This document shows, piece by piece, positions 9,488 to 50,978 of a stretch of 64,000 nucleotides of DNA. The notes beneath the pieces are model-generated. The model was not told the origin of the DNA, did not search any database, and saw only the letters and a list, made by a program, of their open reading frames with translations. The position numbers and the translations under genes are program-made. Position 1 is the stretch's first letter. Every line of letters begins with the position of its first letter. Source of the stretch: Minisyncoccota bacterium (GTDB lineage: Bacteria > Patescibacteriota > Minisyncoccia > Phycocordibacterales > JACRKE01); contig JBAZWG010000001.1 in NCBI GenBank assembly GCA_041660505.1, positions 541,776 to 605,775 on the forward strand, read 5' to 3'.

Positions 9488-9520
9488 AATCACAGACTGC
9501 CGGATGACAGTCTGTGATGA
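9488..9520. terminator. Bidirectional hairpin between folA (+) and the GC-rich minus-strand gene pair
   Basis: atcacagactg / ccggatga / cagtctgtgat gives a perfect 11-bp stem. On the minus strand it is followed by a T-rich run (ttgttttaa). Confidence 0.45.
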
Positions 9521-9545
9521 TGCTGGGGGGGGCGAATCAGCTACA

Positions 9546-9884
9546 TTACAGCCTGCGAAGGGCGCGGTTGAGGCTTTTCATTGCCTCGACGAGCTCTTTC
9601 GAGAGGCGGTACTCTTTTGCCGCCTGGTACTGCTTGATCGGGACATCCAGCGCCGTTGCGATGTCCTCGACCGTAGTCAAACCTTTCGCCTTGTGGGCGT
9701 ACCGAGTTGCTTCGAAGGCGATGTCCTCGCCGGCGACGCGGAGTTTGACGAGCTCGTCCCGGGCTGCGAGCATCTGCTTGAAGGTGCCGAGGTCGTTGTT
9801 CTTTGTCCCCGGCCCAGCAGCGCCGCTTTCGCAGGAGTACACGAAGTCCTTGACGGACTCCTTGAGAATCTTTGTGTCGAACAA
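9546..9884 (-). CDS. Hypothetical protein, paralogue 2 of a tandem pair in a high-GC island
   Basis: 112 aa. Shares the block ..LRVAGEDIAFEATRYAHKAKGL..EDIATAL..QYQAA..ELVEAMKSLNRAL with the upstream ORF. GC content is clearly higher than in surrounding genes. Confidence 0.5.
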   Translation of the reverse strand: MFDTKILKESVKDFVYSCESGAAGPGTKNNDLGTFKQMLAARDELVKLRVAGEDIAFEATRYAHKAKGLTTVEDIATALDVPIKQYQAAKEYRLSKELVEAMKSLNRALRRL

Positions 9885-9894
9885 TCCGGCCTCC

Positions 9895-10242
9895 TTAGAC
9901 TAGAGCCCTGTCGAGGCACTTGATGGCCTCGACAAGCGCGTTCGTGACAGAGAAATTGCCCTTCTTCGAATATTGGACCATCACGACACCGACGGCCTCG
10001 GCGATCTCGTCGAGATTCTTCAAGGGCATCTTGATGCCCTTGGCCGTCTCGAACGGGATGTTCTCGCCGACGAATCGGATCTTGATGATCTCGATCCGGA
10101 TCTCGGCGATCCTGCCATAGGTCAGTATGTTGCGACTCCTGTCGCCGGGGATGATGGCCCCATCGGCCACCGCCTCGGTGACCCATGCCGTCAGCTCCTT
10201 GAGTTTCCTCGTGTCCACTCCTCCTCCTTCAGGCAGAGACAA
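9895..10242 (-). CDS. Hypothetical protein, paralogue 1 of a tandem pair in a high-GC island
   Basis: 115 aa. Block ..IRFVGENIPFETAKGIKMPLKNLDEIAEAVGVVMVQY..ALVEAIKCLDRAL is homologous to the 9546..9884 product. Confidence 0.5.
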   Translation of the reverse strand: MSLPEGGGVDTRKLKELTAWVTEAVADGAIIPGDRSRNILTYGRIAEIRIEIIKIRFVGENIPFETAKGIKMPLKNLDEIAEAVGVVMVQYSKKGNFSVTNALVEAIKCLDRALV

Positions 10243-10336
10243 TCCGCCCGCATCTGCTTAATCAAGATCAGCCTATAGGATTATAAGCTCCATGTCCATG
10301 GCCAACAGAACCCTTTTCGTGCTATAAATATGTTCT

Positions 10337-13300
10337 ATGGAATCAACTAAATCTGACGTCGCCAAGCGCGAGGAAGAGATACTGCAGTTTTGGCAAGAGG
10401 ATAAAACCTTTGAAAAGTCTTTAAAGAAGAAGTCGCCTAAGGGTAACTACGTTTTTTACGATGGCCCGCCTTTTGCCACCGGCACACCGCACTATGGGCA
10501 TATTTTAGGAAGCACAGCTAAAGATGTTATCGGGCGGTATAAGACTATGCAAGGCTACCATGTGCCGAGGCGTTGGGGCTGGGATTGCCATGGTCTGCCT
10601 ATTGAGAATATCGTCGAGAAAGATTTGAAGATTTCCGGCCGTAAGGCTATTGAAGAATACGGTATTGAGAAATTTACGGAGTATGCTCGCAGTAAAGTAT
10701 TGACCTACGTGCACGAATGGAAGAAGACAATCGATCGTATCGGACGCTGGGTGGACTTCGACAATTCCTACAAGACGATGGATAACAGCTTTATCGAGTC
10801 TGTCTGGTGGGCCTTGGGCGAACTGAATAAAAAAGGTTTGATCTATGAAGGTGTTCGCGTCTTGGCGTACTGCCCGCGCTGTGAGACGCCGATTGCCAAC
10901 TCCGAGATCGCAATGGACAATAGTTATAAAGACATCACTGATATCTCTGTCTACGCAAAGTTTGAACTAAAGGATGAGCCAAAAACATATTTCTTAGCGT
11001 GGACAACAACACCGTGGACGTTGCCGGGCAACATCGCACTCGCGGTCAATCCGGAGGTGGCTTATGTAAAAATTAAGCACGAGGGACAGTATTTGATACT
11101 CGCGAAGGAACGTCTGGTGAATACGATGAAAGATAAGCCCTATGAATTAATCGAAGAGTTTGAGGGCAAAACTTTTATAGGGAAAAAATATACGCCACTG
11201 TTCGATTATTATACACACACAAAAGGCATTGCCGATAATGAGAAGTCGTGGACGGTGCGCGGGGCGGAATTTGTGACCACGACCGATGGCACAGGAATAG
11301 TACATATCGCGCCAGCCTTCGGCGAGGACGATATGAATATGGCGAAGGCAGAAGGTTTGCCCTGGATCATCCATGTGACGCCGACCGGTAAATTTACCGA
11401 CGAGGTCACTCATTTTGCGGGCCAGCAAGTAAAACCCAAAGAGAATCATCAAGCCGCCGATGTCGAGATAATTAAGTATCTTGCGCATAATCATCTGCTG
11501 TTTGAAAAAGAAAAAATCATTCACTCTTACCCGCATTGCTATCGCTGTGAGACGCCTCTTTACTATTACGCGTTGCCGTCGTGGTTCGTTAATATCCAGA
11601 AAGAAAAATCTCACATTCTGAGTCGTGCTGAAGAGATGGCCTGGATACCTGCGCACCTGAAAGAGGGGAGGTTCAAGGGTGGCGTCGAGAGTGCGCCAGA
11701 TTGGACGATATCACGCAACCGTTACTGGGCATCGCCTTTGCCGATCTGGAAATCGAAGTCGGGAAAGGTTATGTTCGTAAACTCTCTCGAAGATTTAAAA
11801 AATAAGACAAAAAAGTCCGGGAATACGTACCACGTGATGCGCCACGGCGAGGCGGAAAATAATGTAAAAAAAATAGTCAGTTACGCTGACCAGAAAAATT
11901 CGCACCTCACGCCTAAGGGTAAAGAAGAGACTATGAGTACAGCAAAGACTGTTGCCGTAAATAAAATTACAAAAATCTTTTGTTCACCATTCACACGTAC
12001 GCTCGAGACTGCTTACATCGTGGCAGACGAGCTAGGAATTTCGCGAGACAACATCGTCACCGATGTTCGTCTCTGGGAACTAAACGCAGGGACATTCGAC
12101 GGTAAAAAATGGGCAGAGTGGGAAGTGTGGGCAAAATCACAGGAAAATTATTATAACGCAAGACCCGAAGGTGGCGAGAGCCATTTCGACGCTAAGAAAC
12201 GTTTCGGAGATTTTATCTACGATATCGATAGCCAGTTTCATAATGAAAGTATTCTTGTTGTAACGCACGGCATTGGGCTCGAGGTACTACCGGCAGTCGT
12301 CGAATGCGCCGACGGTGTGCGGTCTAAGCAGATTTACGAAAACACAAGTGAAAAAACAGGGGCAATGATTGAATTAGAATTCACTCCGCTTCCGCACACT
12401 GCCAACTATGAGCTTGATTTTCACCGGCCTTATATTGATGCGATAAAATTGGTTGATGAAGCAGGGGAAGAGTACACAAGAATTACAGAAGTCATTGACT
12501 GTTGGTTCGAGTCCGGCTCGATGCCATTCGCGCAAGACCATTATCCATTCGAACGCAAGAATTGGCAGAAAGAGAATTTTCCCGCAGGGTTCGTGGCAGA
12601 ATATATCGCCCAGACACGCACATGGTTCTATTATACGCACGCGCTTTCTACTATCTTCTTCGACCACGCACCATTCCAGAATGTCATCACGACCGGTAAT
12701 ATTTTGGCCGAGGATGGCCAGAAGATGAGTAAGTCGAAAGGGAACTTTCCTGATCCGGCTCTGCTCTTCGACAAATACAGTGTCGACGCATTGCGCCTCT
12801 ACTTGATGTCCAGCACGCTCATGAAGGGCGAGGATATGAACTTCTTCGAAAAAGGCGTAGATGAAGTAAATAAAAAGGTGATAATGCGCCTCGGTAATGT
12901 GTTGTCTTTTTATAAACTGTATTCTGACTTTAGCTCTAACTCCCAACTCCTAACTCCCAACTCCTCCCATGTGTTAGATCAATGGATGTTTTCTAGACTT
13001 GGTCAGCTTGTGACAGAAGTTACCACGTATATGGAATTATACGAGCTTGATAAGGCGACGCGACCACTCTTCGACTTCGTTGATGATTTATCGACATGGT
13101 ATCTGCGCCGTTCGCGCGACAGGTTTAAATCCGATGATGTTGAAGATAGGGAGGCCGCATTGCAAACTACTCGCTACGTATTAGAAACTACGGCAAAACT
13201 TGTCGCGCCACTTATGCCGTTCATCGCAGAATATATATATAAAGAGTTAGGGAACAGTGAGAGTGTGCACCTCGCCGATTGGCCAGGAATGGGAGATGGG

Positions 13301-13768
13301 AGTTTGGAGATAGGAGATAGGGTAATTCAAGATATGGTTCTGGTGCGGAAAGTAGCTTCACTTGGTCTCGAAGCGCGAGCAAAAGAAAAGATTGCGGTCC
13401 GTCAGCCATTAGCGAAGCTCGAGTTGAAAGATGCGACACTTGAGGGGAAGACGGAATTACTCGAACTGATTAAAGATGAAGTCAATGTAAAACAGATCTT
13501 GTTCAATAAAGAGCTGGAATCGGAAGTGAAGCTCGACACCGTGCTTACCGATGAGCTCAAACAGGAAGGCGAACTCCGCGAGCTGATGCGCGCTGTCCAA
13601 GATTTGCGAAAAACTAAAGGGCTTGAGCCGGGGCAAGTAATACGCCTGACTTTGTCAAAATCATATGAAACTCTCGCAAAAAAGTTCGAGACCGAACTCA
13701 AGAAAGGCGTTCGGGCAGAAAAGATAGTTGTGGCTGAAACGGCAGAAATGTCGCTCGAAGTAGTCTAG
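10337..13768 (+). CDS. ileS: Isoleucyl-tRNA synthetase with an inserted histidine-phosphatase (PGAM-like) domain
   Basis: 1143 aa. HIGH motif PHYGHIL, KMSKS motif QKMSKSKGN, editing-domain motifs and CYRCETPL all present. An inserted ~195 aa region (nt ~11819..12407) carries RHGEAENN, LTPKG, SPFTRTLETA, ELNAGTFDG and VVTHG, the hallmarks of histidine phosphatases. Confidence 0.9.
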   Translation: MESTKSDVAKREEEILQFWQEDKTFEKSLKKKSPKGNYVFYDGPPFATGTPHYGHILGSTAKDVIGRYKTMQGYHVPRRWGWDCHGLPIENIVEKDLKISGRKAIEEYGIEKFTEYARSKVLTYVHEWKKTIDRIGRWVDFDNSYKTMDNSFIESVWWALGELNKKGLIYEGVRVLAYCPRCETPIANSEIAMDNSYKDITDISVYAKFELKDEPKTYFLAWTTTPWTLPGNIALAVNPEVAYVKIKHEGQYLILAKERLVNTMKDKPYELIEEFEGKTFIGKKYTPLFDYYTHTKGIADNEKSWTVRGAEFVTTTDGTGIVHIAPAFGEDDMNMAKAEGLPWIIHVTPTGKFTDEVTHFAGQQVKPKENHQAADVEIIKYLAHNHLLFEKEKIIHSYPHCYRCETPLYYYALPSWFVNIQKEKSHILSRAEEMAWIPAHLKEGRFKGGVESAPDWTISRNRYWASPLPIWKSKSGKVMFVNSLEDLKNKTKKSGNTYHVMRHGEAENNVKKIVSYADQKNSHLTPKGKEETMSTAKTVAVNKITKIFCSPFTRTLETAYIVADELGISRDNIVTDVRLWELNAGTFDGKKWAEWEVWAKSQENYYNARPEGGESHFDAKKRFGDFIYDIDSQFHNESILVVTHGIGLEVLPAVVECADGVRSKQIYENTSEKTGAMIELEFTPLPHTANYELDFHRPYIDAIKLVDEAGEEYTRITEVIDCWFESGSMPFAQDHYPFERKNWQKENFPAGFVAEYIAQTRTWFYYTHALSTIFFDHAPFQNVITTGNILAEDGQKMSKSKGNFPDPALLFDKYSVDALRLYLMSSTLMKGEDMNFFEKGVDEVNKKVIMRLGNVLSFYKLYSDFSSNSQLLTPNSSHVLDQWMFSRLGQLVTEVTTYMELYELDKATRPLFDFVDDLSTWYLRRSRDRFKSDDVEDREAALQTTRYVLETTAKLVAPLMPFIAEYIYKELGNSESVHLADWPGMGDGSLEIGDRVIQDMVLVRKVASLGLEARAKEKIAVRQPLAKLELKDATLEGKTELLELIKDEVNVKQILFNKELESEVKLDTVLTDELKQEGELRELMRAVQDLRKTKGLEPGQVIRLTLSKSYETLAKKFETELKKGVRAEKIVVAETAEMSLEVV

Positions 13769-23135: not shown

Positions 23136-24557
23136 ATGCAAAAAATATACATAACAACAACTCTACCGTATGTAAATGCATCGCCGCATATCGGCTTCGC
23201 GATGGAAATTATCCGTGCCGATATTCTTGCTCGTCATTATCGCAAGGCCGGATACGAAGTTTTTTTTAATTTCGGTACAGATGAACACGGAAAGAAAATA
23301 TACGAGAAGGCCGTAGAGGCAGGGAAAGATCCGAAAGCATATTGTGATGAATTCGCCGCGAAATTCGACGCCCTTAAATCGGTCCTGAATGTGACTTATA
23401 ATAATTTCATCCGGACGACCGATGAACACCACATAATGGCCGCCGGGGAATTTTGGAAGATTTGTCATGCCAAAGGCGATATCTACAAGAAAAAGTATCA
23501 AGTCAAATATTGCGTAGGGTGCGAGCTGGAGAAGCAAGATTCGGACTTGGTTAATGGGCAATGTCCGGAGCACCCGAACCGCAAACTGGAACTCTTGGAC
23601 GAAGAAAACTACTTCTTTAGATTTTCCAAATACGAAAAGCAGCTGCTCGATTTATACGAGAAGAATCCAGAACTCGTCTCTCCTCCATGGAGGATGAACG
23701 AGATAAAGGCATTCGTCGAGAGAGGATTGCAAGACTTCTCAATTTCACGATTAAAGGCAAAGATGCCATGGGGGATAGATGTACCGGGCGACAATGACCA
23801 TGTTATGTATGTCTGGTTCGACGCTCTGGTGAACTATATTTCAGCTATCGGCTGGCCTGATGATATGAATAGATTCGGTGCTTGGTGGCCGGCCGTTCAG
23901 GTCTGCGGGAAGGATAACTTGCGCCAGCAGACGGCGATGTGGCAGGCGATGCTTATGTCGGCCGGACTGCCTCACTCGAAGAAGATCTACGTTAACGGCT
24001 TTATAATCTCCGGCGGACAGAAGATGAGCAAGTCGCTTGGAAACGGTATCAACCCTATTGAAATAGTAGCCGAATATGGTACAGACGCCCTCCGCTTCTT
24101 TCTGGCCAGGGAAGTTACACCCTTCGAAGATTCCGATGTTACATCCGAGAGAATCAAAGAATCGTATAACGCATATCTTGCCAACGGTATTGGCAATCTG
24201 GCTTCCCGCATCCTAAAAATGAGTGAGAGCTATCTTGCCGGCGAAAAGATCGAGGTTATTATCTCAGATAATCCCGAGTTTGATAGTTTTATAGAAAACT
24301 ATCAGTTCGATTCTGCTATGAAATTTGTTATGGACGAAGTAACCAAACTTAACGAAAAGATTCAGACGACACAACCTTTCTCTCTCTATAAGACCGATCC
24401 GGAAAAGGCGAAAGTCATTATTCGGGAACTTATGAAAGGACTCGCCGGAGTGGCCAGGCTCCTTGAGTCGGTGATGCCAGCAACTGCCGAGAAAATTTCA
24501 GAGTGCATCAAAGCCAACAAAAAACCGGAGACACCGTTATTCCTAAGAAAAGAGTAA
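23136..24557 (+). CDS. metG: Methionyl-tRNA synthetase (short form, no C-terminal tRNA-binding domain)
   Basis: 473 aa. PYVNASPHIGFA sits at the HIGH position. Zn knuckle CVGCELEK...CPEHPN. KMSKS motif GQKMSKSLGN. Confidence 0.9.
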   Translation: MQKIYITTTLPYVNASPHIGFAMEIIRADILARHYRKAGYEVFFNFGTDEHGKKIYEKAVEAGKDPKAYCDEFAAKFDALKSVLNVTYNNFIRTTDEHHIMAAGEFWKICHAKGDIYKKKYQVKYCVGCELEKQDSDLVNGQCPEHPNRKLELLDEENYFFRFSKYEKQLLDLYEKNPELVSPPWRMNEIKAFVERGLQDFSISRLKAKMPWGIDVPGDNDHVMYVWFDALVNYISAIGWPDDMNRFGAWWPAVQVCGKDNLRQQTAMWQAMLMSAGLPHSKKIYVNGFIISGGQKMSKSLGNGINPIEIVAEYGTDALRFFLAREVTPFEDSDVTSERIKESYNAYLANGIGNLASRILKMSESYLAGEKIEVIISDNPEFDSFIENYQFDSAMKFVMDEVTKLNEKIQTTQPFSLYKTDPEKAKVIIRELMKGLAGVARLLESVMPATAEKISECIKANKKPETPLFLRKE

Positions 24558-33853: not shown

Positions 33854-36800
33854 ATGAGTAGAAAGTTCAAAAACTCGAAAGTGACGAAAGTCATTTCAGG
33901 TTTGACGGGCTTGATGACTGCAGTGGTCATGGTTGGTGGGGCACTCGTAGTGCCTGCATCTGCCGCAACCGCAGCAGAACTTCAATCTCAAATCGACGCT
34001 CTTCTCTCGCAGGTTCAGACCCTACAAGGTCAGGCCGAAGGAGGAGGATCAGCATCGTCAGGTTACACCTTCAGCAAGAATCTCTTGCTCGGTAGCACAG
34101 GTGCTGACGTTAAGGCGCTTCAAGAGCTCTTGAACCAGGATTCAGATACACAAGTATCTGTAACTGGCGCAGGTTCTCCGGGTGCAGAGACTTCATACTT
34201 TGGTCCTGCAACGAAACGCGCAGTTATTAAATTCCAAGAGAAGTACGCAGATGAGATTCTTGCCCCGATCGGCTTGGCCCACGGGACAGGAACAGTCGGC
34301 CCAGCCACTCGCGCAAAATTGAATGAGTGGTCAGGTACGGTCTCTAGTACAGACACTACTACCAGTACATTCCCTGCCGGCTGTACATCAGCTAGTGGCT
34401 TCAGTCCGACAACCGGACAGTCATGTGCTTCTGGTACAACGACAACCACAACCACGACACTTCCGGCCGGCTGTACATCAGCTAGTGGCTTCAGTCCGAC
34501 AACCGGACAGTCCTGTGCCGGCGGTACAACCACCACAACGACTACGACTGGTGCAGGAACCCTCACGGTTTCTTCTGCCACTCAGCCGATGAACTCGCTC
34601 GCACCGAAAGGTACGTCGCGTGTTCCGTTCACAACCTTCACACTCACCGCAGGTGCGTCTGATGTCTCTGTGACAGGTGTCACCGTCCAGCGCGCAGGTC
34701 TCGCACAAGATGCGGCCTTCGCCGGTGTCGTTCTCTTGAGCAGTGATGGTACACAGCTCGGTATTGCCAAGACTTTGAACTCGGACCACACCGCAACAGT
34801 GGGTGATCCGTTCACTGTCAAGGCCGGTACTTCAGCCACCTACACCATCGCCGGTAACATGGCAGCGGATGAGACTTCATACGCAGGCCAAGTTGCCCAG
34901 CTCAATGTTATGGGTATCCAGACTGCCGCCACGGTATCAGGAACCTTCCCGATCCTCGGCGCCCAGCAGACGATTAACAACACTTTGAGTGTTGGTACGG
35001 CAACTTTCGCCGCTTCTTCTTTTGACCCTAACACGGCTCAAAGCAAGCAGATCGGTGAGACGGCTTACAAGTTCTCTGGTCTACGCGTTACCGCGGGTTC
35101 AGCAGAACGCGTAATCCTCAAGTCTGTTCGCTGGTACCAGTCAGGCTCGGCCGCATCAGGCGACCTTGCTAATGTCATCACTAAAGTTGATGGCGACAGC
35201 ACCCTATATCCGACGACTGTGTCGGCAGACGGTAAGTACTACACGACAATCTTCGGTACAAGCGGCCTCTTGATTGACAAGGGTCTCTCAAAGGATCTCT
35301 ATGTAACTGGTGACCTCGTAGGTGCTGGTTCTTCAGGCCGAACTGTAGAATTCGATGTTTACAAGAACACCGATATCTACATGACGGGTGAGACCTACGG
35401 CTACGGTATCATCGGTACAGCTACGGCCAACTGTAACGCAGTTGCTTCAACAGCAACGACAGCTTCTGAATTCATCAACTCAAGCACTTCTTGTGCGTCA
35501 TCCGGTACGATTGGTACGCCGTTCTATAGCGCTTCGGTCTTAACGATCAGCGCCGGTTCGGTAACCAGTCTCCAGAAGGCCACATCGGTTCCTTCGCAGA
35601 ACATTGCAGTCAATGTTCCGAATCAGATCTTGGGTGGCTATATTGTAGACCTCAAGGGTGAGCCGGTAGCGGTTCAGTCACATGTCTTCACAATCGCTTC
35701 CTCAACAGCGGTTGCAGGAAATGGTGTGCTTACAAGTGTAACTCTCGTTGATGAGAACGGTGCAGTTGTCGCCGGTCCTGTCGATGGAGTTTCTGCTACA
35801 GGTAACACGCCGACCCAGACAGTGACCTTCACCGATACGGTAACGTACAAGATCGGAGCACACACTTATACCCTTAAGGGTAAGGTGCCTTCGACCGCAA
35901 GTACGGGTAACACCTATCAGGTTTCCTCGTTCACGCTCTCGAGTGCAACAGGCCAGACAACGGGTAACACAATTACCTTCCCGGCCGGTACTGCGCTCAA
36001 TACGATGACGGTTAAGTCCGGTGCGCTCGCAGTTTCTGTCTCGTCACAGCCGGTAGCACAGAGCATTGTGTCCGGCGGTACGAACGTACTTCTCGCGAAC
36101 TACCAGCTTGACGCATCGCAGTCCGGTGAAGATGTACGCTTCTCTTCGCTCACCGGTACGCTCACGAGCACCGGTACCGAATTCGCAACCACTTCGCTTA
36201 CGAACTGTCAGATCTACAATGATGCTGGTGTTTCGATAACGACAGGTTCGAATGTTGTCAATCCAACTGCTACGACGATTGCCTGGACATTCGACAACTC
36301 TTACACCGTAACCAAGGGGACCACCAAGACTCTCTCGGCCAAGTGTAACTTGTCAACAGCAGCAGTTGCGGGCAACATCGTCAGTCTCGGCCTTGCGGCA
36401 AGTGCATTGGGAACGGCCACTGGCCAAACTTCCGGCAATACAGTCGGAACGACCTATAGCGCTTCTGTGGGTCCTGCGATGACGATTGCCGCAGGTTCGT
36501 TTGCAGTGTCTCAAGATTCTTCCGCTCCTTCATACACTGTTGTTGGGTCAAGTGCGAACGTGCCGGCAACCGGCATTGTTGCTAACGTGCTTCGCTTCCG
36601 CGCAACTAATGAAGGCGTCAACTTGACCAAGCTCGGTATTCAGTTGACAAATGCCACAGTGGCATCGTCTTCGTCATCCGACTTGTTGCAGTACACAGTA
36701 TGGGATGGCAGTACTCTCTTAGGTACCCAGACCATTACTGGTTCTGCCTCATTCGCGACAACCACACTCACACTCATGAATCCCGCTGGAGTTCCGCTCC

Positions 36801-37606
36801 CGAAGGATATCGACAAGCTCATTACGATCAAGGCTGACCTCGCCCAGGTTGGTACCAACCAATCCGGTACACAAGGTCACTTAGTCAAGCTTGACTTCTT
36901 GAATGCGGAAGGTACTGGAGTTCAATCAGGCTCGACTCTCGAAGCTACAGGTTCGACCGCTGTAGGCGGTCTCCGTGTCTTCAAGTCATATCCGACAGTT
37001 GCTATTGACACTCTCTCTGTAACAGGAGGAGGAGTCGCTTCTGACGGTAACCTGATCCGCTTCAAGGTAACAGCATCACCTTCAGGCGATGTGGCTCTCA
37101 CGAGCTTCAATGTCAAGTTTGCAACGACATCGGCAACGATCAGCAACTTGAATGCCTTTGCTTACACAGATGCAGCCTACTCACAAGGTGTGTCTGGAGT
37201 ATCAAACGGCGGCCAGTTGAAGAGCACGAACGTCTCATTGGCTGCATGGGCTGATAGTACAACAGTCATTGGTATGACTGTCACCGACAGCGCTGGAGTA
37301 GCAAGTTCTGTATCAATCCCAGCAGGTCAGACGCGCTACTTCCAGGTACATGGTACGGTTACCCCGTCGACGACAACCTATTCGGTTGGTACGACGCTCT
37401 TGGGTGACAATGCCTATCCCGGATTAGCGACCACATTCATGGCGAATGCCGCGGTTGTTGAGGCTGGTGTAAGCGGTACTAATAACGACTTCGTATGGTC
37501 ACCGAATGCGACCACGACTTCGATACGTACTGCAAATGACTGGACGAACGGTTACCAGATCCCTGGTTTGCCTACCTCCGGATTGTCCCAGAACCGCACG
37601 AACTAG
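33854..37606 (+). CDS. Giant cell-surface (S-layer-like) protein with N-terminal coiled coil and peptidoglycan-binding domain
   Basis: 1250 aa. Signal/anchor MSRKF..GLTGLMTAVVMVGGALVVPASA, coiled coil, then a PG_binding_1-like segment (GADVKALQELLNQ...YFGPATKRAVIKFQEKY). Thr-rich linkers with a duplicated PAGCTSASGFSPTTGQSCA unit precede about 900 aa of beta-rich repeats. Confidence 0.75.
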   Translation: MSRKFKNSKVTKVISGLTGLMTAVVMVGGALVVPASAATAAELQSQIDALLSQVQTLQGQAEGGGSASSGYTFSKNLLLGSTGADVKALQELLNQDSDTQVSVTGAGSPGAETSYFGPATKRAVIKFQEKYADEILAPIGLAHGTGTVGPATRAKLNEWSGTVSSTDTTTSTFPAGCTSASGFSPTTGQSCASGTTTTTTTTLPAGCTSASGFSPTTGQSCAGGTTTTTTTTGAGTLTVSSATQPMNSLAPKGTSRVPFTTFTLTAGASDVSVTGVTVQRAGLAQDAAFAGVVLLSSDGTQLGIAKTLNSDHTATVGDPFTVKAGTSATYTIAGNMAADETSYAGQVAQLNVMGIQTAATVSGTFPILGAQQTINNTLSVGTATFAASSFDPNTAQSKQIGETAYKFSGLRVTAGSAERVILKSVRWYQSGSAASGDLANVITKVDGDSTLYPTTVSADGKYYTTIFGTSGLLIDKGLSKDLYVTGDLVGAGSSGRTVEFDVYKNTDIYMTGETYGYGIIGTATANCNAVASTATTASEFINSSTSCASSGTIGTPFYSASVLTISAGSVTSLQKATSVPSQNIAVNVPNQILGGYIVDLKGEPVAVQSHVFTIASSTAVAGNGVLTSVTLVDENGAVVAGPVDGVSATGNTPTQTVTFTDTVTYKIGAHTYTLKGKVPSTASTGNTYQVSSFTLSSATGQTTGNTITFPAGTALNTMTVKSGALAVSVSSQPVAQSIVSGGTNVLLANYQLDASQSGEDVRFSSLTGTLTSTGTEFATTSLTNCQIYNDAGVSITTGSNVVNPTATTIAWTFDNSYTVTKGTTKTLSAKCNLSTAAVAGNIVSLGLAASALGTATGQTSGNTVGTTYSASVGPAMTIAAGSFAVSQDSSAPSYTVVGSSANVPATGIVANVLRFRATNEGVNLTKLGIQLTNATVASSSSSDLLQYTVWDGSTLLGTQTITGSASFATTTLTLMNPAGVPLPKDIDKLITIKADLAQVGTNQSGTQGHLVKLDFLNAEGTGVQSGSTLEATGSTAVGGLRVFKSYPTVAIDTLSVTGGGVASDGNLIRFKVTASPSGDVALTSFNVKFATTSATISNLNAFAYTDAAYSQGVSGVSNGGQLKSTNVSLAAWADSTTVIGMTVTDSAGVASSVSIPAGQTRYFQVHGTVTPSTTTYSVGTTLLGDNAYPGLATTFMANAAVVEAGVSGTNNDFVWSPNATTTSIRTANDWTNGYQIPGLPTSGLSQNRTN
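34371..34550 (+). repeat. Near-perfect 90-bp tandem duplication inside the giant surface-protein gene
   Basis: ccggctgtacatcagctagtggcttcagtccgacaaccggacagtc occurs at 34377..34422 and again at 34467..34512. Each copy encodes PAGCTSASGFSPTTGQSC followed by a poly-Thr stretch. Confidence 0.85.
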
Positions 37607-46713: not shown

Positions 46714-47555
46714 GTACTCCATCCAGATATGCAAAAAATCCTCAACAAAAAACGCAGCGGTTAAGGAGATTCGCATCTGTGCGTACTCTTAAATCGCCAC
46801 AAGCGATTTTTTTTGTCCCAGAGGGACAATCCGCCGGTGAGGCGGGTGAGAGATTCATCAGAACGACCCGTAACTTGAAAATTTAATTCCATCGCATCAC
46901 TGGTGTTAACCAATTTTATTGGGGTCTACCATGATGAAGATGGGCAGGAAAAAGAAAGAAAAAAACAATTAAGCAAAGACGGTTTTCATATTTCCTAATA
47001 GGAAATATAAGAGCATATGGTGGATGCCTAGACTTTGAAAGGCGATGAAGGACGTAGCATGGCTGCGATAAGCTTCGGGGAGGTGCCTAGCAACCTTTGA
47101 TCCGGAGATGTCCGAATGGGGAAACCTTCATGACGATGAGTCATGAGACTCGTACTAATTCTACGAGATCGCACACCCTGGGAAGTGAAACATCTCAGTA
47201 CCAGGAGGAAAATAAACAAAATGTATTCGAATGTGGGATGTGGTGCGGTATAGTCCGCAGTACATCCTACATTCGTTGTATTCCCTAAGTAGCGGCGAGC
47301 GAAAAGGGAGAAGCCCAAACCGAATTTTTTCGCAAGAAAAACTTCGGTGTTATAAGGCAGTGATATAGAATTTATTCTAGTAGAGTTACAAAACAGCATA
47401 ATAATCGAATCGACTGGAAAGTCGAGCCACAGAAGGTAATGGCCCTGTAGATGAAATTATGTTGTCTCTAATTACTGTTCTTGAGTACCCCGGGACATGA
47501 TAAGCTTGGGGGAAGTCAGCGGCACTAACCGCTAAGGCTAAATACTTTCAAAGAT

Positions 47556-47594
<39 letters not shown>

Positions 47595-48309
47595 GCCCGG
47601 TGAGGGCGTTGAAATAAACCTGAAACCATATGTTTACAAGGAGTCGGAGCGGATGGCGCAAGCCATGCCGCGACGGCGTGCCTATTGAAGAATGAGCCAA
47701 CGAGTTTATATGTACTGCTAGGCTAATCGCGTTAACCCGCGAGGAGTCATAGGGAAACCAAGTGTTAATAGCGCGTCACCCTGTTTACAGGGGTGTAGTA
47801 CATGTAAGACCCGAAGCCAGAGCGAGCTTACCATGAGCAGGGTGAACCATCGAGAAATCGATGGGGAGGCCCGAACCCGTATGTCGTACAATGCATTGGG
47901 ATGACTTGTGGTAAGAAGTGAAAAGCTAATCGAGCCTGGTAATAGCTGGTTCTCTCCGAAATAGCTTTTGGGTTAGCGTCACGTGTTCCATGTGGGGGTA
48001 GAGCACTGGAAGGTCTCGACAGGTCGAAAGATCGCGAGACCTATCAAACTCCGAATACCACATGCTAAAAGCGTGGCAGTTAGACTGCGGGGGCTAAGCT
48101 CCGTTGGTCAAAAGGGGAACAGCCCAGATCTCAATCTAAGGTCCCTAAATCTACGTTAAGTGCATCACAAGGAGGTGAAGTTTCGTTGACAATGAGGAGG
48201 TTGGCTTAGAAGCAGCCACCCTTGAAAGAAAGCGTAATAGCTCACTCATCGAGAGACTTCGCGCCGAAGATAATCGGGGCTCAAACGTAGTACCGAAGGT
48301 GAGGACTTG

Positions 48310-48388
48310 AGGACTTCATTTTTGCAAATTCAGAAGGTTCAACCTTTTGAATGCCTAAGGTTGAACCTTGGGGCAAAAATGAAGTCCT
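48310..48388. repeat. REPIN-like palindromic doublet, family A copy A4, at the tip of an extended 23S helix (H45 region)
   Basis: aggacttcatttttgc ... gaaggttcaacctt / ttgaatgcct / aaggttgaacctt ... gcaaaaatgaagtcct. The repeat doublet is enclosed by a further 16-bp inverted repeat. Confidence 0.65.
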
Positions 48389-49190
48389 TGAGTGGTAGGA
48401 GAGTTTTCGTGTCCGCAGTGAAGCCTAAGGGGTGACCCGTGGTGGAGCGACACGAAGTACGAATGTTGGCACAAGTAACCGCAATAGCGTTTAGAACACG
48501 CTACGCCGAAAGACTAAGGTTTCCTTCGCGATGTCAATCAGCGAAGGGTTAGTCGGTCCTAAGGGAATGACGAATGTCGGACCCGATGGAATACAGGTTA
48601 ATATTCCTGTACTTTTTTGTAGTCTGATGAAATGACGAAGTGTAGTATGCATGGCGCATTATGGATTTGTGTTTGCGCATCCGCCTTGATTCCCAGGAAA
48701 ATCCGGGAGTCTGTCTTTAATGACGACGGTGAAGGTGTGTGAAGATTCCGCGATTCGTCAAAGGAGATCATGCAAAGCGCGCTTCCAAGAAAAGTTTCTA
48801 AAGATAACTACAGAAAAACCGTACCGTAAACCGACACAGGTAGTCAGGTCGAGCAGACCAAGGCGAACGAGTGAGTGCATCCCAAGGAACTCGGCAAAAA
48901 AGCGGCCGTAACTTCGGAATAAGGCCTGCCCACGCAAGTGGGCTACAACAAAAGTTTCTCTGGCGACTGTTTATCAAAAACACAGCTCCCTGCGAACTCG
49001 TAAGAGGATGTATAGGGGGTGACGCCTGACCAATGCCAGAAGGTCAACCGGTGACCGTGTGCGCATCACACTGCGTGTGATGCAGTTTAAATATTTAAAT
49101 ATTTAAATTTGCATCGCGCTTGGCGCGATGCGTATGCTGTTCGTCGTAAGCCCTGGTGAATGTCGGCAATAACTATAATTGTCCTAAGGT

Positions 49191-49510
49191 TTTCGGATGG
49201 TCGCAAGACAATTCGAAAAGAATTGGGACAATTAGAGTACTGTGTAGATAAATTAGTCATAATAAGTCATTAATGCAAGTCAAAGACGATAGCGCTACCT
49301 TATCTAGCTATATGCTGTAGAGTCTGTACATTCATTTATACAGATGAGCAGCAGGGAAGTCGCCTCTACGGCGACCCCTCAGAGACTGAACGCTGGACAT
49401 GAAATTCTCCTCACGGAGAAGATTATGAAGATATAGTCCGTACTCGTAAGCGATTACGAGAGTTTTGTAGAAATACAAAACCCATGTCGCAAGGCATTGG
49501 TAACATATAG
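49191..49510 (+). mobile_element. Group I intron in 23S rRNA (E. coli ~1917-1931 region), no homing-endonuclease ORF
   Basis: Inserted between exon gtcctaaggT and agcgcaattccttgtcggg. The 5' exon ends in U and the intron ends in G. Contains the P7-region elements cagagactgaacgctgg (R-like) and aagatatagtcc (S element, identical to the Tetrahymena consensus). Confidence 0.6.
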
Positions 49511-50113
49511 AGCGCAATTCCTTGTCGGGTAAGTTCCGACGTGCACGAATGGCGTAACGACTGGAGAACTGTCTCGGGATGTTGCTCGGTGAAAATACAG
49601 TGCCGGTGAAGATGCCGGCTACCTGCAGATAGACGAAAAGACCCCAGGAGCTTTACTGTAGCTTGATATTGATTATACGTTTTGTCTGCGTAGCATAGAT
49701 GGGAGGATTTGAGAGTATGATTTCGGTTGTGCTTGATCCGTCAGTGAAATACCATTCTTATGAAGTGTATAATCTAACCTGCAAGGATAAACCTTGCGGA
49801 GACAGTATCTGGTAGGCAGTTTTAGTGGGGCGCTATCCTCCTAAAGAGTAACGGAGGAGTTTATTAAGGTTGGCTAGCCGCGAATGGAAACCGTGGCGAT
49901 AGTGTAATGGCACAAGCCAGCTTAACTGCAAGACGTACATGTCGAGCAGATGCGAAAGCAGAACATAGTGAACCGACCATGCGCATTAGAGGCGGTGGAA
50001 GATTATCGGACAAAAGCTACCCTGGGGATAACAGGCTGGTACTGCCCAAGCGTCCATAGCGACGGCAGTGTTCGGCACCTCGATGTCGGCTCATCTTATC
50101 CTGGGGCTGGAGA

Positions 50114-50146
<33 letters not shown>

Positions 50147-50173
50147 AAGATACGCGAGCTGGGTTCAGACCGT

Positions 50174-50503
50174 ATAGCACCTAAATTTAAATATTTAAAT
50201 TTTGAAATATTTAAACAGTGGGTTTTATACCGTCTGAACCCTCGAGAATATGATATACAACAAACCACATCATACTGTTTACTTGAATCACGGCGGTCGT
50301 AGATAGAGATATCTATGATAGAGCTGACTTATATCGGTGGAGTCCCATGCGGATCACACCTAGGGAATTTCTAATATTTAAATATTTAAACATTTAAATT
50401 TTGGACGACCCGTAGAGACTAAACGTCAGCCATCTTCATTCATAATTTATTGTGAGAAAGATGAAGCTATAGTCCATGCCCGTAGCAATACGGTGAATAC
50501 ATG
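50174..50503 (+). mobile_element. Group I intron in 23S rRNA (E. coli ~2593-2600 region), no homing-endonuclease ORF
   Basis: Inserted between exon gggttcagaccgT and cgtgagacagg. Ends in G. Contains agactaaacgtc (R element) and aagctatagtcc (S element). Confidence 0.6.
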
Positions 50504-50865
50504 CGTGAGACAGGTTGGTCTCCTATCTACTGCAGGCGTTGAACATTGAGAAGATTTACTCCTAGTACGAGAGGACCGGAGTGAACTGACCGCTGGTCTA
50601 CCTGTTGTCCTGCCAAGGGCACCGCAGGGTAGCTAAGTCGGGAAAGGATAATCTCTGAAAGCATCTAAGAGAGAAGCCAACTTCAAGATTAATGTTCGTT
50701 ATGAGACTCGTGAGAGATGATCACGTTGATAGGTGTTCGGTGTAAGCATCGCAAGATGTTGAGCCAAGACATACTAATAAGTCCATTCCTATTAGGAAAT
50801 ATGGAAGTCGTCGAAACTTAAATTATTTTTTCTTTTAAAACCTGCAAATATAAAGTTGAATGTTT

Positions 50866-50978
50866 AGTTTTGGTGGTTTGTCGGAGGGGTCACACCTGTT
50901 CTCATTCCGAACACAGAAGTTAAGCCCTCTTGAAGCGATGGTACTCCTAACGGGGGAGAGTAGCTAGCCGCCAGAACT
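50866..50978 (+). rRNA. rrf: 5S ribosomal RNA
   Basis: ggtggtttgtcggaggggtcacacctgttctcattccgaacacagaagttaagccc...gggggagagtagctagccgccagaac matches the 5S consensus helices and loops. Confidence 0.85.

Follow-up and report, generated by a model that had tools for sequence, protein, structure and literature searches.

A type-2 isoleucyl-tRNA synthetase with a histidine-phosphatase domain nested in its CP3 insertion

One gene in the window (the whole 64-kb stretch of DNA analysed, which is 9% of a 719-kb contig) encodes an isoleucyl-tRNA synthetase (IleRS) that contains a histidine phosphatase. Is this phosphatase a genuine part of the protein, and what might it do there? Aminoacyl-tRNA synthetases belong to the most thoroughly studied enzymes, and their known added modules are editing, tRNA-binding or complex-forming domains. 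In the literature that we searched, we found no description of a synthetase whose catalytic body houses a conserved and apparently active phosphatase. The protein is an apparently working type-2 IleRS of a Paceibacterota (CPR) bacterium. A branch-1 histidine-phosphatase domain, complete and spanning aa 497-684, is nested in its CP3, a peripheral insertion of variable structure that separates CP2 from the second half of the Rossmann fold (Table 1).

Table 1. Features of the ileS gene and its product. Coordinates are positions in the window.
Feature	Coordinates	Strand	Evidence
ileS, type-2 (eukaryote-like) IleRS with nested phosphatase domain	10337..13768	+	ORF list; TIGR00392
HIGH signature of the synthetic site, HYGH, aa 52-55	10490..10501	+	invariant in 119 homologues
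CP1 editing domain, ~aa 200-400	10934..11536	+	motif scan; 1wk8/1wny match
N-terminal CP3 part, aa 462-496, RYWASPLPIWKSKSGKVMFVNSLEDLKNKTKKSGN	11720..11824	+	alignments; entropy 0.85 bits
Nested His_Phos_1 (branch 1) domain, aa 497-684	11825..12388	+	Pfam PF00300
RHG motif: R502, H503 (predicted phospho-accepting nucleophile), G504	11840..11848	+	aligned to PhoE RHG
R554, second phosphate-binding Arg (SPFTR)	11996..11998	+	119/119
E581, predicted general acid/base	12077..12079	+	E 118/119, D 1/119
Cap / specificity region, aa 582-612, hypervariable	12080..12172	+	entropy 2.62 bits
H644, second catalytic His (VVTHG)	12266..12268	+	119/119
C-terminal CP3 part and return to Rossmann fold, aa 685-722, LPHTANYELDFHRPYIDAIKLVDEAGEEYTRITEVIDCW	12389..12502	+	entropy 0.90 bits
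KMSKS loop, aa 796-800	12722..12736	+	motif scan
Anticodon-binding helical domain, Anticodon_1, aa 881-1026	12977..13414	+	Pfam
C-terminal tRNA-binding region of type-2 IleRS, DUF5915, aa 1059-1137	13511..13747	+	Pfam

The host enzyme and the reality of the insert

The ileS gene is a single unbroken ORF of 1143 aa, whose product scores 838 bits against the NCBIfam ileS equivalog TIGR00392 (cut-off 621.4). Pfam recognizes tRNA-synt_1 on both sides of His_Phos_1, followed by Anticodon_1 and DUF5915. The protein is clearly closer to type-2 than to type-1 enzymes: it scores 724 bits with its best solved relative, Priestia megaterium IleRS2 (8c8u), versus 300 bits with the type-1 structure 8c9e, and 649-663 bits with yeast and human IleRS versus 293 bits with that of S. 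aureus. It also has the type-2 DUF5915-type C-terminus, in place of the bacterial Zn-binding domain, and this region aligns with the C-terminal domain of 8c8u/8c8v. The protein does not belong to the MupA or MupB families (NF000257 and NF000258), against which it scores 693 and 718 bits (cut-off 1900).

P. megaterium IleRS2 (8c8u/8c8v) and Thermus thermophilus IleRS (1ile), bacterial examples of the mupirocin-insensitive type 2, are of the same family and have the same domain order, namely the Rossmann fold with HIGH and KMSKS, the Zn cysteines of the CP core, CP1, CP2 and CP3, then the helical anticodon-binding domain and the DUF5915-type C-terminus. An AF2 model of the full-length protein (pLDDT 86.4, pTM 0.77) matches 8c8v with a TMt of 0.77. 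The CP1 editing domain has the motifs WTTTPWT (222), GTGIVH (318) and AFGEDD (327) and is flanked by the CP-core Zn cysteines (CPRC 179, CYRC 401), and aa 196-400 match isolated structures of the T. thermophilus IleRS editing domain (1wk8/1wny). The ribose-binding motif reads EYIAQTRTWFY, as opposed to EGIDQTRGWFY in type-2 IleRS. Given the intact HYGH, KMSKS and editing motifs, and a core that is 72-75% identical across the clade, it is likely that IleRS function is retained. The strong purifying selection on the core is consistent with, though no proof of, charging of tRNA-Ile as the cell's only IleRS. Neighbors of ileS are thyA, tmk, folA, two small unknown ORFs, recO, a DUF11 membrane protein and a class II synthetase; no functional hint emerged from this neighborhood within the 64-kb window.

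It is extremely improbable that the architecture is an artefact of assembly or gene calling; nothing speaks in favor of this explanation, and the comparative data refute it. A chimera, a frameshift or gene read-through does not fit a continuous ORF with IleRS on both sides, no compositional break (GC 0.459 in the insert and 0.464 in the flanks, with no step), no junction repeats and an architecture that is shared with relatives. Of the 120 best homologues, drawn from four independent sources (NCBI, ENA, JGI and Logan assemblies), all 120 show this architecture, and so do 25 species genomes of GTDB; the agreement among the homologues excludes a frameshift or an assembly join. This very protein is on record, from a Candidatus Paceibacterota MAG (MFA6006665.1). 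The initial annotation had interpreted the locus as a true domain insertion, which is borne out by IleRS on both sides and the Pfam profile match. A frameshift or join at the domain boundaries, which it had named as a finding that would speak against the insertion, was sought in the ORF, the composition and the homologues, and was not found. The survey of IleS in related CPR genomes that it proposed recovered the same insertion throughout the clade.

The insert is thus clade-wide and is widespread in the sampled Paceibacterota/Parcubacteria relatives, and it looks vertically inherited. A recent mobile insertion was rejected, as no direct or inverted repeats flank the insert at its boundaries and its GC content equals that of the flanks.

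The phosphatase domain and its site

The His_Phos_1 model (PF00300, gathering cut-off 21.7) matches aa 500-651 of the whole protein with 94.1 bits (E 1.1e-26) and the excised insert with 99.1 bits (E 3.2e-28). The initial annotation had set the domain at 11819-12407 (aa 495-690), in the region of a small Zn knuckle. This placement holds and can be refined: the insert sits inside CP3, after the CP3 helix that ends in EDLKNKTKK and before the HRPYID segment. We use the published definition of CP3, the topology of which is different in each solved IleRS (PMC7191050). In place of ~18 CP3 residues of 8c8u (462-479), the present protein has 211 residues that hold the whole phosphatase domain; its aa 685-722 align to 8c8u from residue 480 on. 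In the structural papers that we examined, no contact between CP3 and tRNA is described.

A further difference from type-2 IleRS is the absence of the CP3 Zn cysteines. Of the ancestral Zn knuckle, the N-terminal part of CP3 has lost the first CxxC and the C-terminal part the second Cys pair, and the cysteines are also gone in about half of the relatives. The knuckle (WKCxxC...CxCGG) is kept alongside the insert in the proteins P0046, P0061 and P0119 and in about half of the GTDB loci. Since relatives with a Zn knuckle also keep the insert, the insert is not a replacement for the knuckle.

The domain contains the elements expected of its superfamily. The RHG motif follows a strand (aa 497-502), as is typical of the motif with the nucleophilic His, and is accompanied by an LT..G motif (aa 524-528), SPFTR (aa 550-554) and THG (aa 643-645); the second Arg, second His and acidic donor of the phosphate pocket are all present. 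The initial annotation had described a full catalytic set, and its motifs are indeed all present and align with the catalytic positions of the superfamily. R502 and H503 are present in all 119 clade homologues and G504 in 118, although identity over the remainder of the domain is only 38% across these proteins. The catalytic columns likewise show no variation among 23 GTDB species loci, with identities as low as 31%. Given that the active-site residues are kept while the remainder diverges, the domain is apparently catalytically competent, a prediction made from sequence. Beyond the catalytic residues, the most variable segments are the cap, the loop at 513-523 and the C-terminal part (2.2-2.8 bits). 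The cap is ~28 aa shorter in three homologues (L022, L024 and one other), and these retain the catalytic residues. The aligned relatives show no additional conserved basic residues around the active site.

The predicted fold is confident, is the alpha/beta fold of the superfamily and lies nearest to true phosphatases, with the phosphoserine phosphatase PspA as top match. By fold and score, the domain groups with the small phosphatases PspA, PhoE, Rv2419c and CobC. The label "PGAM-like" in the initial annotation is therefore misleading, as the domain also falls below every NCBIfam cut-off for mutase equivalogs. The broad-specificity PhoE/YhfR of Geobacillus stearothermophilus (1ebb, 1h2e), PspA (4ij5) and the glucosyl-3-phosphoglycerate phosphatase Rv2419c (4pz9, 6s2q) are free-standing, whereas the domain described here is nested. 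Moreover, it is only 18-27% identical to these enzymes, conservation does not extend to the cap, and its scores stay below all equivalog thresholds.

It is quite improbable that the domain is a disguised metabolic enzyme (dPGM, phosphoserine phosphatase or alpha-ribazole phosphatase) that fills a missing pathway step. Its best NCBIfam matches, ribazole_cobC (75 bits), dPGM_arch (72) and PspA (54), and the top fold match to PspA point in this direction. However, the scores miss the respective cut-offs for CobC (TIGR03162; 75.4 versus 162.9) and PspA (NF045917; 53.7 versus 350), and a dPGM identity (NF038349, TIGR01258 and the PRK equivalogs) was rejected in the same way. SixA (TIGR00249) was also rejected (31.9 versus 74.5).

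Related architectures in other proteins and lineages

A curated precedent for an IleRS with an additional enzymatic domain is NF040702 (ileS_w_GNAT). The present protein scores 323 bits against this model (cut-off 1999), matching only through the common IleRS part, and it carries a phosphatase rather than a GNAT domain, none being detected by Pfam. A relative with both His_Phos and GNAT, P0185, also lies outside NF040702 (218 bits). Branch-1 histidine phosphatases are likewise joined to nucleic-acid or nucleotide enzymes in the RNase H/acid phosphatase proteins (NF005567, Rv2228c type) and in the Nudix-His_Phos protein MutT1 (3fjy, 9cxx). Both are end-to-end fusions, whereas our domain is nested and its partner is an aminoacyl-tRNA synthetase; the score against NF005567 is far below the cut-off (326).

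The closest parallel occurs in ValRS, likewise a class Ia editing synthetase. In ValRS of Gracilibacteria/Peregrinibacteria-type CPR bacteria we found one to four His_Phos domains (e.g., P0277, P0279, P0283 and P0299), inserted with their RHG motif between WGHRIP and DVLDTWF, a loop that is homologous to the CP3 site of IleRS, or at one second site. The host enzyme and the domain lineage differ from those of the IleRS case, and tandem copies are frequent in ValRS. Within IleRS, His_Phos occupies four different positions, and a single protein (P0268) has three copies at three sites. All of these gains in class Ia synthetases are internal, in or beside the catalytic body, with no terminal fusions among them.

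The ValRS domains are 24% identical to those embedded in IleS, while the latter are 33% identical to free-standing proteins. The embedded domains apparently derive from at least two origins, and IleRS and ValRS apparently gained them convergently, in the same loop but in different CPR lineages. In the literature searched, we found no description of such a convergent gain or of the tandem arrays. All 33 sampled IleRS copies have the complete catalytic set, including Glu and both His. By contrast, 17 of 70 ValRS proteins appear to be without an intact Glu and/or second His; one ValRS subclade keeps R-H-R and retains the domain, with Glu changed to Ser, Ala or Gly and the second His to Asn.

The subfamily of the nested domain also includes about 35 proteins of 170-210 aa that are probably free-standing, and several of them start with M..GNxYxxxRHGE, resembling the junction of the IleRS insert. 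Other cargo also occurs in the same hosts: P0185 has a Y1-transposase-like domain in addition to GNAT, and P0046 an HD domain. In Patescibacteria, TsaC is fused to Ogt, TruB, 2H phosphoesterase, MPG, GNAT, Nudix or His_Phos, and this variety of partners indicates that fusions of unrelated small enzymes to translation-related proteins are common in these lineages. A TsaC-His_Phos fusion does exist (P0238), but only four TsaC clusters carry His_Phos. Because TsaC has so many unrelated partners, we downgraded a possible link between adenylate-forming enzymes and phosphatases, or removal of PPi. No signature of a family-I PPase was found in the 64-kb window.

A plain ValRS of 888 aa (P0374) may come from the same genome as one IleRS of the P0200 cluster, since the longest contig has the same length (439,541 nt) for both, and a Nomurabacteria ValRS (P0381) is also without an insert. 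These two proteins are consistent, on thin data, with one host per lineage. Genes neighboring ileS in the P0200 lineage are POR, SufBD, purA, DAHP synthase and a gene for an SLH protein.

Possible roles of the nested phosphatase

We tentatively favor an autonomous phosphatase that is carried by IleRS. Going by the chemistry of its family, the nested domain would be a phosphomonoesterase: R502, R554 and H644 would hold the phosphate, H503 would attack it, forming a phospho-histidine intermediate, and E581 would protonate the leaving group and activate water. With a broad, PhoE-like specificity, the enzyme would serve in house-keeping or salvage, and its carrier would be a loop that tolerates insertions, in a protein that is essential and constitutively expressed. 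Charging of tRNA-Ile would proceed normally, and the two active sites would lack mechanistic coupling. Broad specificity is suggested by the variable cap, loop and C-terminal part, the cap deletions, the lack of added conserved basic residues and the failure to reach any equivalog threshold, while the variable topology of CP3, the free-standing kin, the other cargo and the TsaC fusions argue for autonomy. On the other hand, such hitch-hiking does not predict that the same superfamily would enter class Ia synthetases repeatedly, or that the insertions would be internal when terminal fusions are evolutionarily easier. A deletable cap also resembles macromolecule-directed members such as SixA.

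Only slightly less probable is functional coupling, in which the synthetase positions the phosphatase to act on one of its phosphate-bearing ligands. The ligand might be a tRNA with a blocked 3′ end (a 2′/3′-phosphate or a toxin-added (pyro)phosphate on A76), whose chargeability would be restored, or a nucleotide or pyrophosphate that is produced during activation and editing. It might also be a phosphorylated residue within the synthetase, as class I synthetases are phosphorylated beside KMSKS by HipA-type kinases. For the proofreading, tRNA-end or nucleotide-hydrolysing role that the initial annotation had suggested, the evidence is circumstantial on both sides. In favor of coupling, the domain was inserted recurrently and convergently in IleRS and ValRS. 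However, we know of no house-keeping source of 3′-phosphorylated tRNA in bacteria, a character so strictly conserved throughout the clade looks more like house-keeping than defense, and removal of a product would help all twenty synthetases, not one. The lack of a described CP3-tRNA contact, the unrelated cargo in the same hosts, the promiscuity of TsaC and the degenerate ValRS copies also weigh against it. We regard it as rather unlikely that CPR class Ia editing synthetases repeatedly recruited an active phosphatase because of a substrate that the synthetase holds. In the boldest form of this proposal, the domain would strip a blocking 2′/3′-(pyro)phosphate from the CCA end, or dephosphorylate the synthetase or its nucleotide ligands.

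A non-catalytic role is improbable. The domain could then be a structural stand-in for the lost Zn knuckle, or could sense phosphate or a phospho-ligand and thereby regulate the synthetase; the catalytic residues would then serve solely to bind the ligand. The loss of the CP3 cysteines in this protein and about half of its relatives, and the ValRS subclade that retains a domain with altered Glu and second His, are in line with such a role. Against it stand the completeness of the catalytic set in IleRS (33/33 copies and 118-119 of 119 clade members, despite 38% identity) and E581, which would be needless for binding alone.

If the autonomous phosphatase is the correct reading, the protein is a clear example of an ultra-small genome that has placed an unrelated enzyme in a permissive loop of an essential protein, and would identify CP3 as an engineerable insertion site. 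Coupling to aminoacylation would instead mean a new synthetase-associated activity, perhaps a new quality-control step for tRNA ends or nucleotides. Were the domain recruited to act on a ligand, IleRS, and elsewhere ValRS, would be a "repair-and-charge" enzyme with a third activity besides synthesis and editing. The NCBI pipeline gives these proteins no name more specific than "class I tRNA ligase family protein", and many CPR genomes would be better annotated with a family model of their own for this architecture.

Nested phosphatase domain in IleRS

The ileS product is an isoleucine--tRNA ligase (NCBIfam TIGR00392, 838 bits vs a cut-off of 621). Pfam detects His_Phos_1 (PF00300) at aa 500-651 (E 1.1e-26, 94 bits; gathering cut-off 21.7 bits), splitting tRNA-synt_1 into two stretches that are followed by Anticodon_1 and then DUF5915. 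The segment 11819-12407 (aa 495-690) alone also matches His_Phos_1 (E 3.2e-28). The initial annotation had described a histidine-phosphatase domain inside a continuous 1143-aa ORF with IleRS sequence on both sides, and this observation is confirmed. The ORF is uninterrupted, HYGH (aa 52) and KMSKS (aa 796) lie N- and C-terminal to the insert, respectively, and every motif quoted is present and aligns to a catalytic position of the superfamily (R502-H503-G504, L524-T525..G528, S550..R554, E581 and H644). By analogy to the histidine-phosphatase family, the domain would hydrolyze phosphomonoesters via phospho-H503, with R502, R554 and H644 holding the phosphate and E581 serving as acid/base.

Among solved structures, the type-2 IleRS of Priestia megaterium matches best (8c8u, 724 bits), with type-1 enzymes scoring about 300 bits. 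Residues 8-475 and 687-1133 of our protein align with 8c8u residues 10-461 and 480-930, respectively; therefore, it has 211 residues in place of about 18 CP3 residues in the Priestia enzyme. The CP3 subdomain was defined in Candida albicans IleRS as the stretch from CP2 to the second half of the Rossmann fold; its topology varies among Candida, Thermus and S. aureus IleRS, and zinc is bound only in Thermus (PMC7191050). The earlier description of the site as a zinc-knuckle slot is thus essentially right. The four knuckle cysteines are absent from our protein (WKSKSGK ... VDEAGEEY; 11750-11770 and 12443-12466). Both WKCxxC ... CxCGG and the insert are kept in the relatives P0046, P0061 and P0119 and in roughly half of the GTDB loci described below, so the insertion is older than the cysteine loss. 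The full-length protein is predicted confidently by AlphaFold (pLDDT 86.4, pTM 0.77, both junctions >90), and the model superposes on IleRS2.

An assembly artefact can practically be dismissed. GC content does not shift across the junctions (0.459 in the insert, 0.464 in the flanks), and the only repeats at the junctions are chance ones of 10-14 nt. Databases already list an identical protein, encoded on a 719-kb Candidatus Paceibacterota MAG contig. Each of the top 120 homologues (56-63% identity, 1139-1323 aa; NCBI, ENA, JGI and Logan assemblies) contains PF00300, and a scan of GTDB species genomes added 25 loci spanning the insert and both flanks. In 23 of these 25, a script recognized an unbroken ORF that is as long as IleRS or runs off the contig; L006 and L014 escaped it solely because they read RHA, not RHG. 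The survey of related CPR IleS thus bears out the claim of a domain insertion rather than a fusion artefact. Record titles of the relatives give Nomurabacteria, Paceibacterota, Patescibacteria and Parcubacteria RAAC4_OD1, and 'Saccharibacteria' for automatically labelled TPA assemblies; taxon labels are unreliable for many MAGs.

Hundreds of proteins with this architecture are present in public databases with precomputed Pfam matches, under the NCBI product name 'class I tRNA ligase family protein'. Among NCBIfam models, one covers IleRS with GNAT and none covers IleRS with His_Phos. A description of a histidine phosphatase in IleRS, ValRS or any aaRS was not found in full-text literature, whose coverage stops at subscription journals, and this is absence of evidence only. 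In short, the protein is a type-2 IleRS that carries a second, predicted enzyme, a phosphatase, within it.

The nucleotide-binding motif of the synthetase (12599-12631, aa 755-765) is AEGIDQTRGWFY in P. megaterium IleRS2, AEYIAQTRTWFY in our protein and AEGLDQTRGWFY in other insert-bearing IleRS (P0162, P0195, P0200 and P0268). The EYIAQ.RT form (Gly to Tyr, Asp to Ala, Gly to Thr) recurs in 112 of the best homologues and represents a synthetic-site change specific to the clade. Within the phosphatase, RHGYGQHM replaces RHGE..xN (Asn509 to Met) in 13 of the 119 IleRS homologues, which form a subclade (e.g., P0020 and P0026). Glu614 is Ser (GES to GSS/ASS) in 13/119 sequences as well, coinciding with RHGYGQHM in the members inspected. 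These substitutions point to an altered phosphatase pocket in this branch.

Related domains in IleRS, ValRS and other proteins

An exhaustive search with the insert alone against 1.84 billion representatives gave 6162 matches, 459 with E below 1e-10. The best 150 include 89 IleRS or IleRS fragments, 2 ValRS, two free tandem doubles, one TsaC(Sua5)-His_Phos fusion and about 35 apparently genuine free-standing proteins of 170-210 aa, a call that for short metagenomic proteins means a start codon and no IleRS flanks. Several free-standing relatives begin M..GNxYxxxRHGE, as at the insert junction of our protein.

Some IleRS of other lineages have His_Phos at other sites, and some IleRS carry further domains. 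P0268 has three His_Phos copies: at site A', after the second zinc half; at site B, between a 13-residue segment and ADFIAEGLDQTRGWFY, i.e., before the GLDQTRGWF motif; and at site C, about 75 residues past KMSKS in the anticodon-binding domain. P0200 (locus L031, 8001-12260) and P0219 have His_Phos at sites B and C. The gene neighbours of P0200 (POR, SufBD, purA, DAHP synthase and an SLH protein) are atypical for a Paceibacterota genome. P0185 contains three foreign domains in frame: His_Phos in CP3, a REP/IS200-type tyrosine-transposase-like domain within the CP1 editing domain, and GNAT at site B after a 20-residue segment. The protein terminates directly past GNAT, and its gene may be split or truncated. 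P0046 has an extra C-terminal HD domain beside its CP3 phosphatase.

The ValRS P0131 has four His_Phos copies, and 70 of its 119 best relatives (a ValRS set including P0277-P0394) have one to three. Bearers with a name are labelled Gracilibacteria, Peregrinibacteria or unclassified 'bacterium'; ValRS labelled Nomurabacteria, Magasanikbacteria or Peribacteria are plain. The counterpart of the IleRS CP3 site, a homologous loop flanked by WGHRIP and DVLDTWF, holds 75 of 83 copies; the remaining 8 precede WCISRQ. Mean pairwise identity of the IleS-embedded domains is 36% to the single TsaC-fused domain, 33% to free-standing domains and 24% to ValS-embedded domains, which share 33% among themselves. 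These values, which are pairwise identities and not a phylogeny, indicate that the same loop of the paralogous IleRS and ValRS probably acquired the domain at least twice independently.

Possible roles of the insert

The phosphatase in IleRS may be an autonomous hitch-hiker, a reading that we favour tentatively. CP3 is peripheral and has a different fold in every solved IleRS (PMC7191050), the insert has close free-standing relatives, and the same hosts carry unrelated cargo. As a control, most TsaC of Patescibacteria (P0238, P0396-P0512) are fusions with a second small enzyme, predominantly the methyltransferase Ogt (PF01035) and less frequently TruB, 2H/cyclic phosphodiesterase, methylpurine glycosylase, GNAT, Nudix or His_Phos. 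Thus, translation-related proteins of these lineages often carry unrelated small enzymes in fixed fusions. Having one host per lineage fits, if thinly, a cell that needs phosphatase activity somewhere: a plain 888-aa ValRS (P0374) and a member of the P0200 IleRS cluster appear to share one genome, and a plain ValRS also occurs in a Nomurabacteria record.

It is also possible, if somewhat doubtful, that the phosphatase is coupled to a ligand of the synthetase. Members of one superfamily entered both IleRS and ValRS repeatedly and frequently in tandem, with six distinct insertion points that are all internal and within or adjoining the catalytic body. The domain can do without its cap, a trait of macromolecule-directed members, and its attachment to the synthetase is modelled as rigid. 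A purely structural or sensor role is unlikely in IleRS because E581 and both His are perfectly retained; all five R-H-R-E-H residues are kept in 33/33 sampled IleS copies. They are kept in 56/75 ValRS CP3 copies, and 17 of the 70 ValRS proteins apparently lack an intact copy, a count that hangs on a single column of the alignment within a variable segment. One ValRS subclade retains the domain with Glu changed to G/A/S and the second His to N. That the insert is a specific metabolic enzyme in disguise is more improbable still.

Other features of the window

Features of the window, with positions in nucleotides
Feature	Position	Strand	Remarks
ileS ORF	10337..13768	+	1143 aa, uninterrupted
ORF in GC-rich patch	9546-9884	-	112 aa
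ORF in GC-rich patch	9895-10242	-	115 aa
MetRS	23136-24557		473 aa, very compact, without inserted domain
1250-aa ORF	33854-37606		sole match weak peptidoglycan-binding; otherwise uncharacterised
23S rRNA gene	46994-50798		two group I introns, 49184-49460 and 50275-50495
5S rRNA	50869-50976		follows 23S rRNA gene

No 16S gene adjoins the 23S rRNA gene in the window, and the whole 64 kb yields no tRNA gene with ARAGORN. A GC-rich patch (9500-10300; GC 0.56-0.60, surroundings about 0.45) borders ileS on its upstream side. Its two tandem ORFs have no Pfam match and are paralogues of each other (33% identity, E 2e-12). The patch may be acquired DNA.
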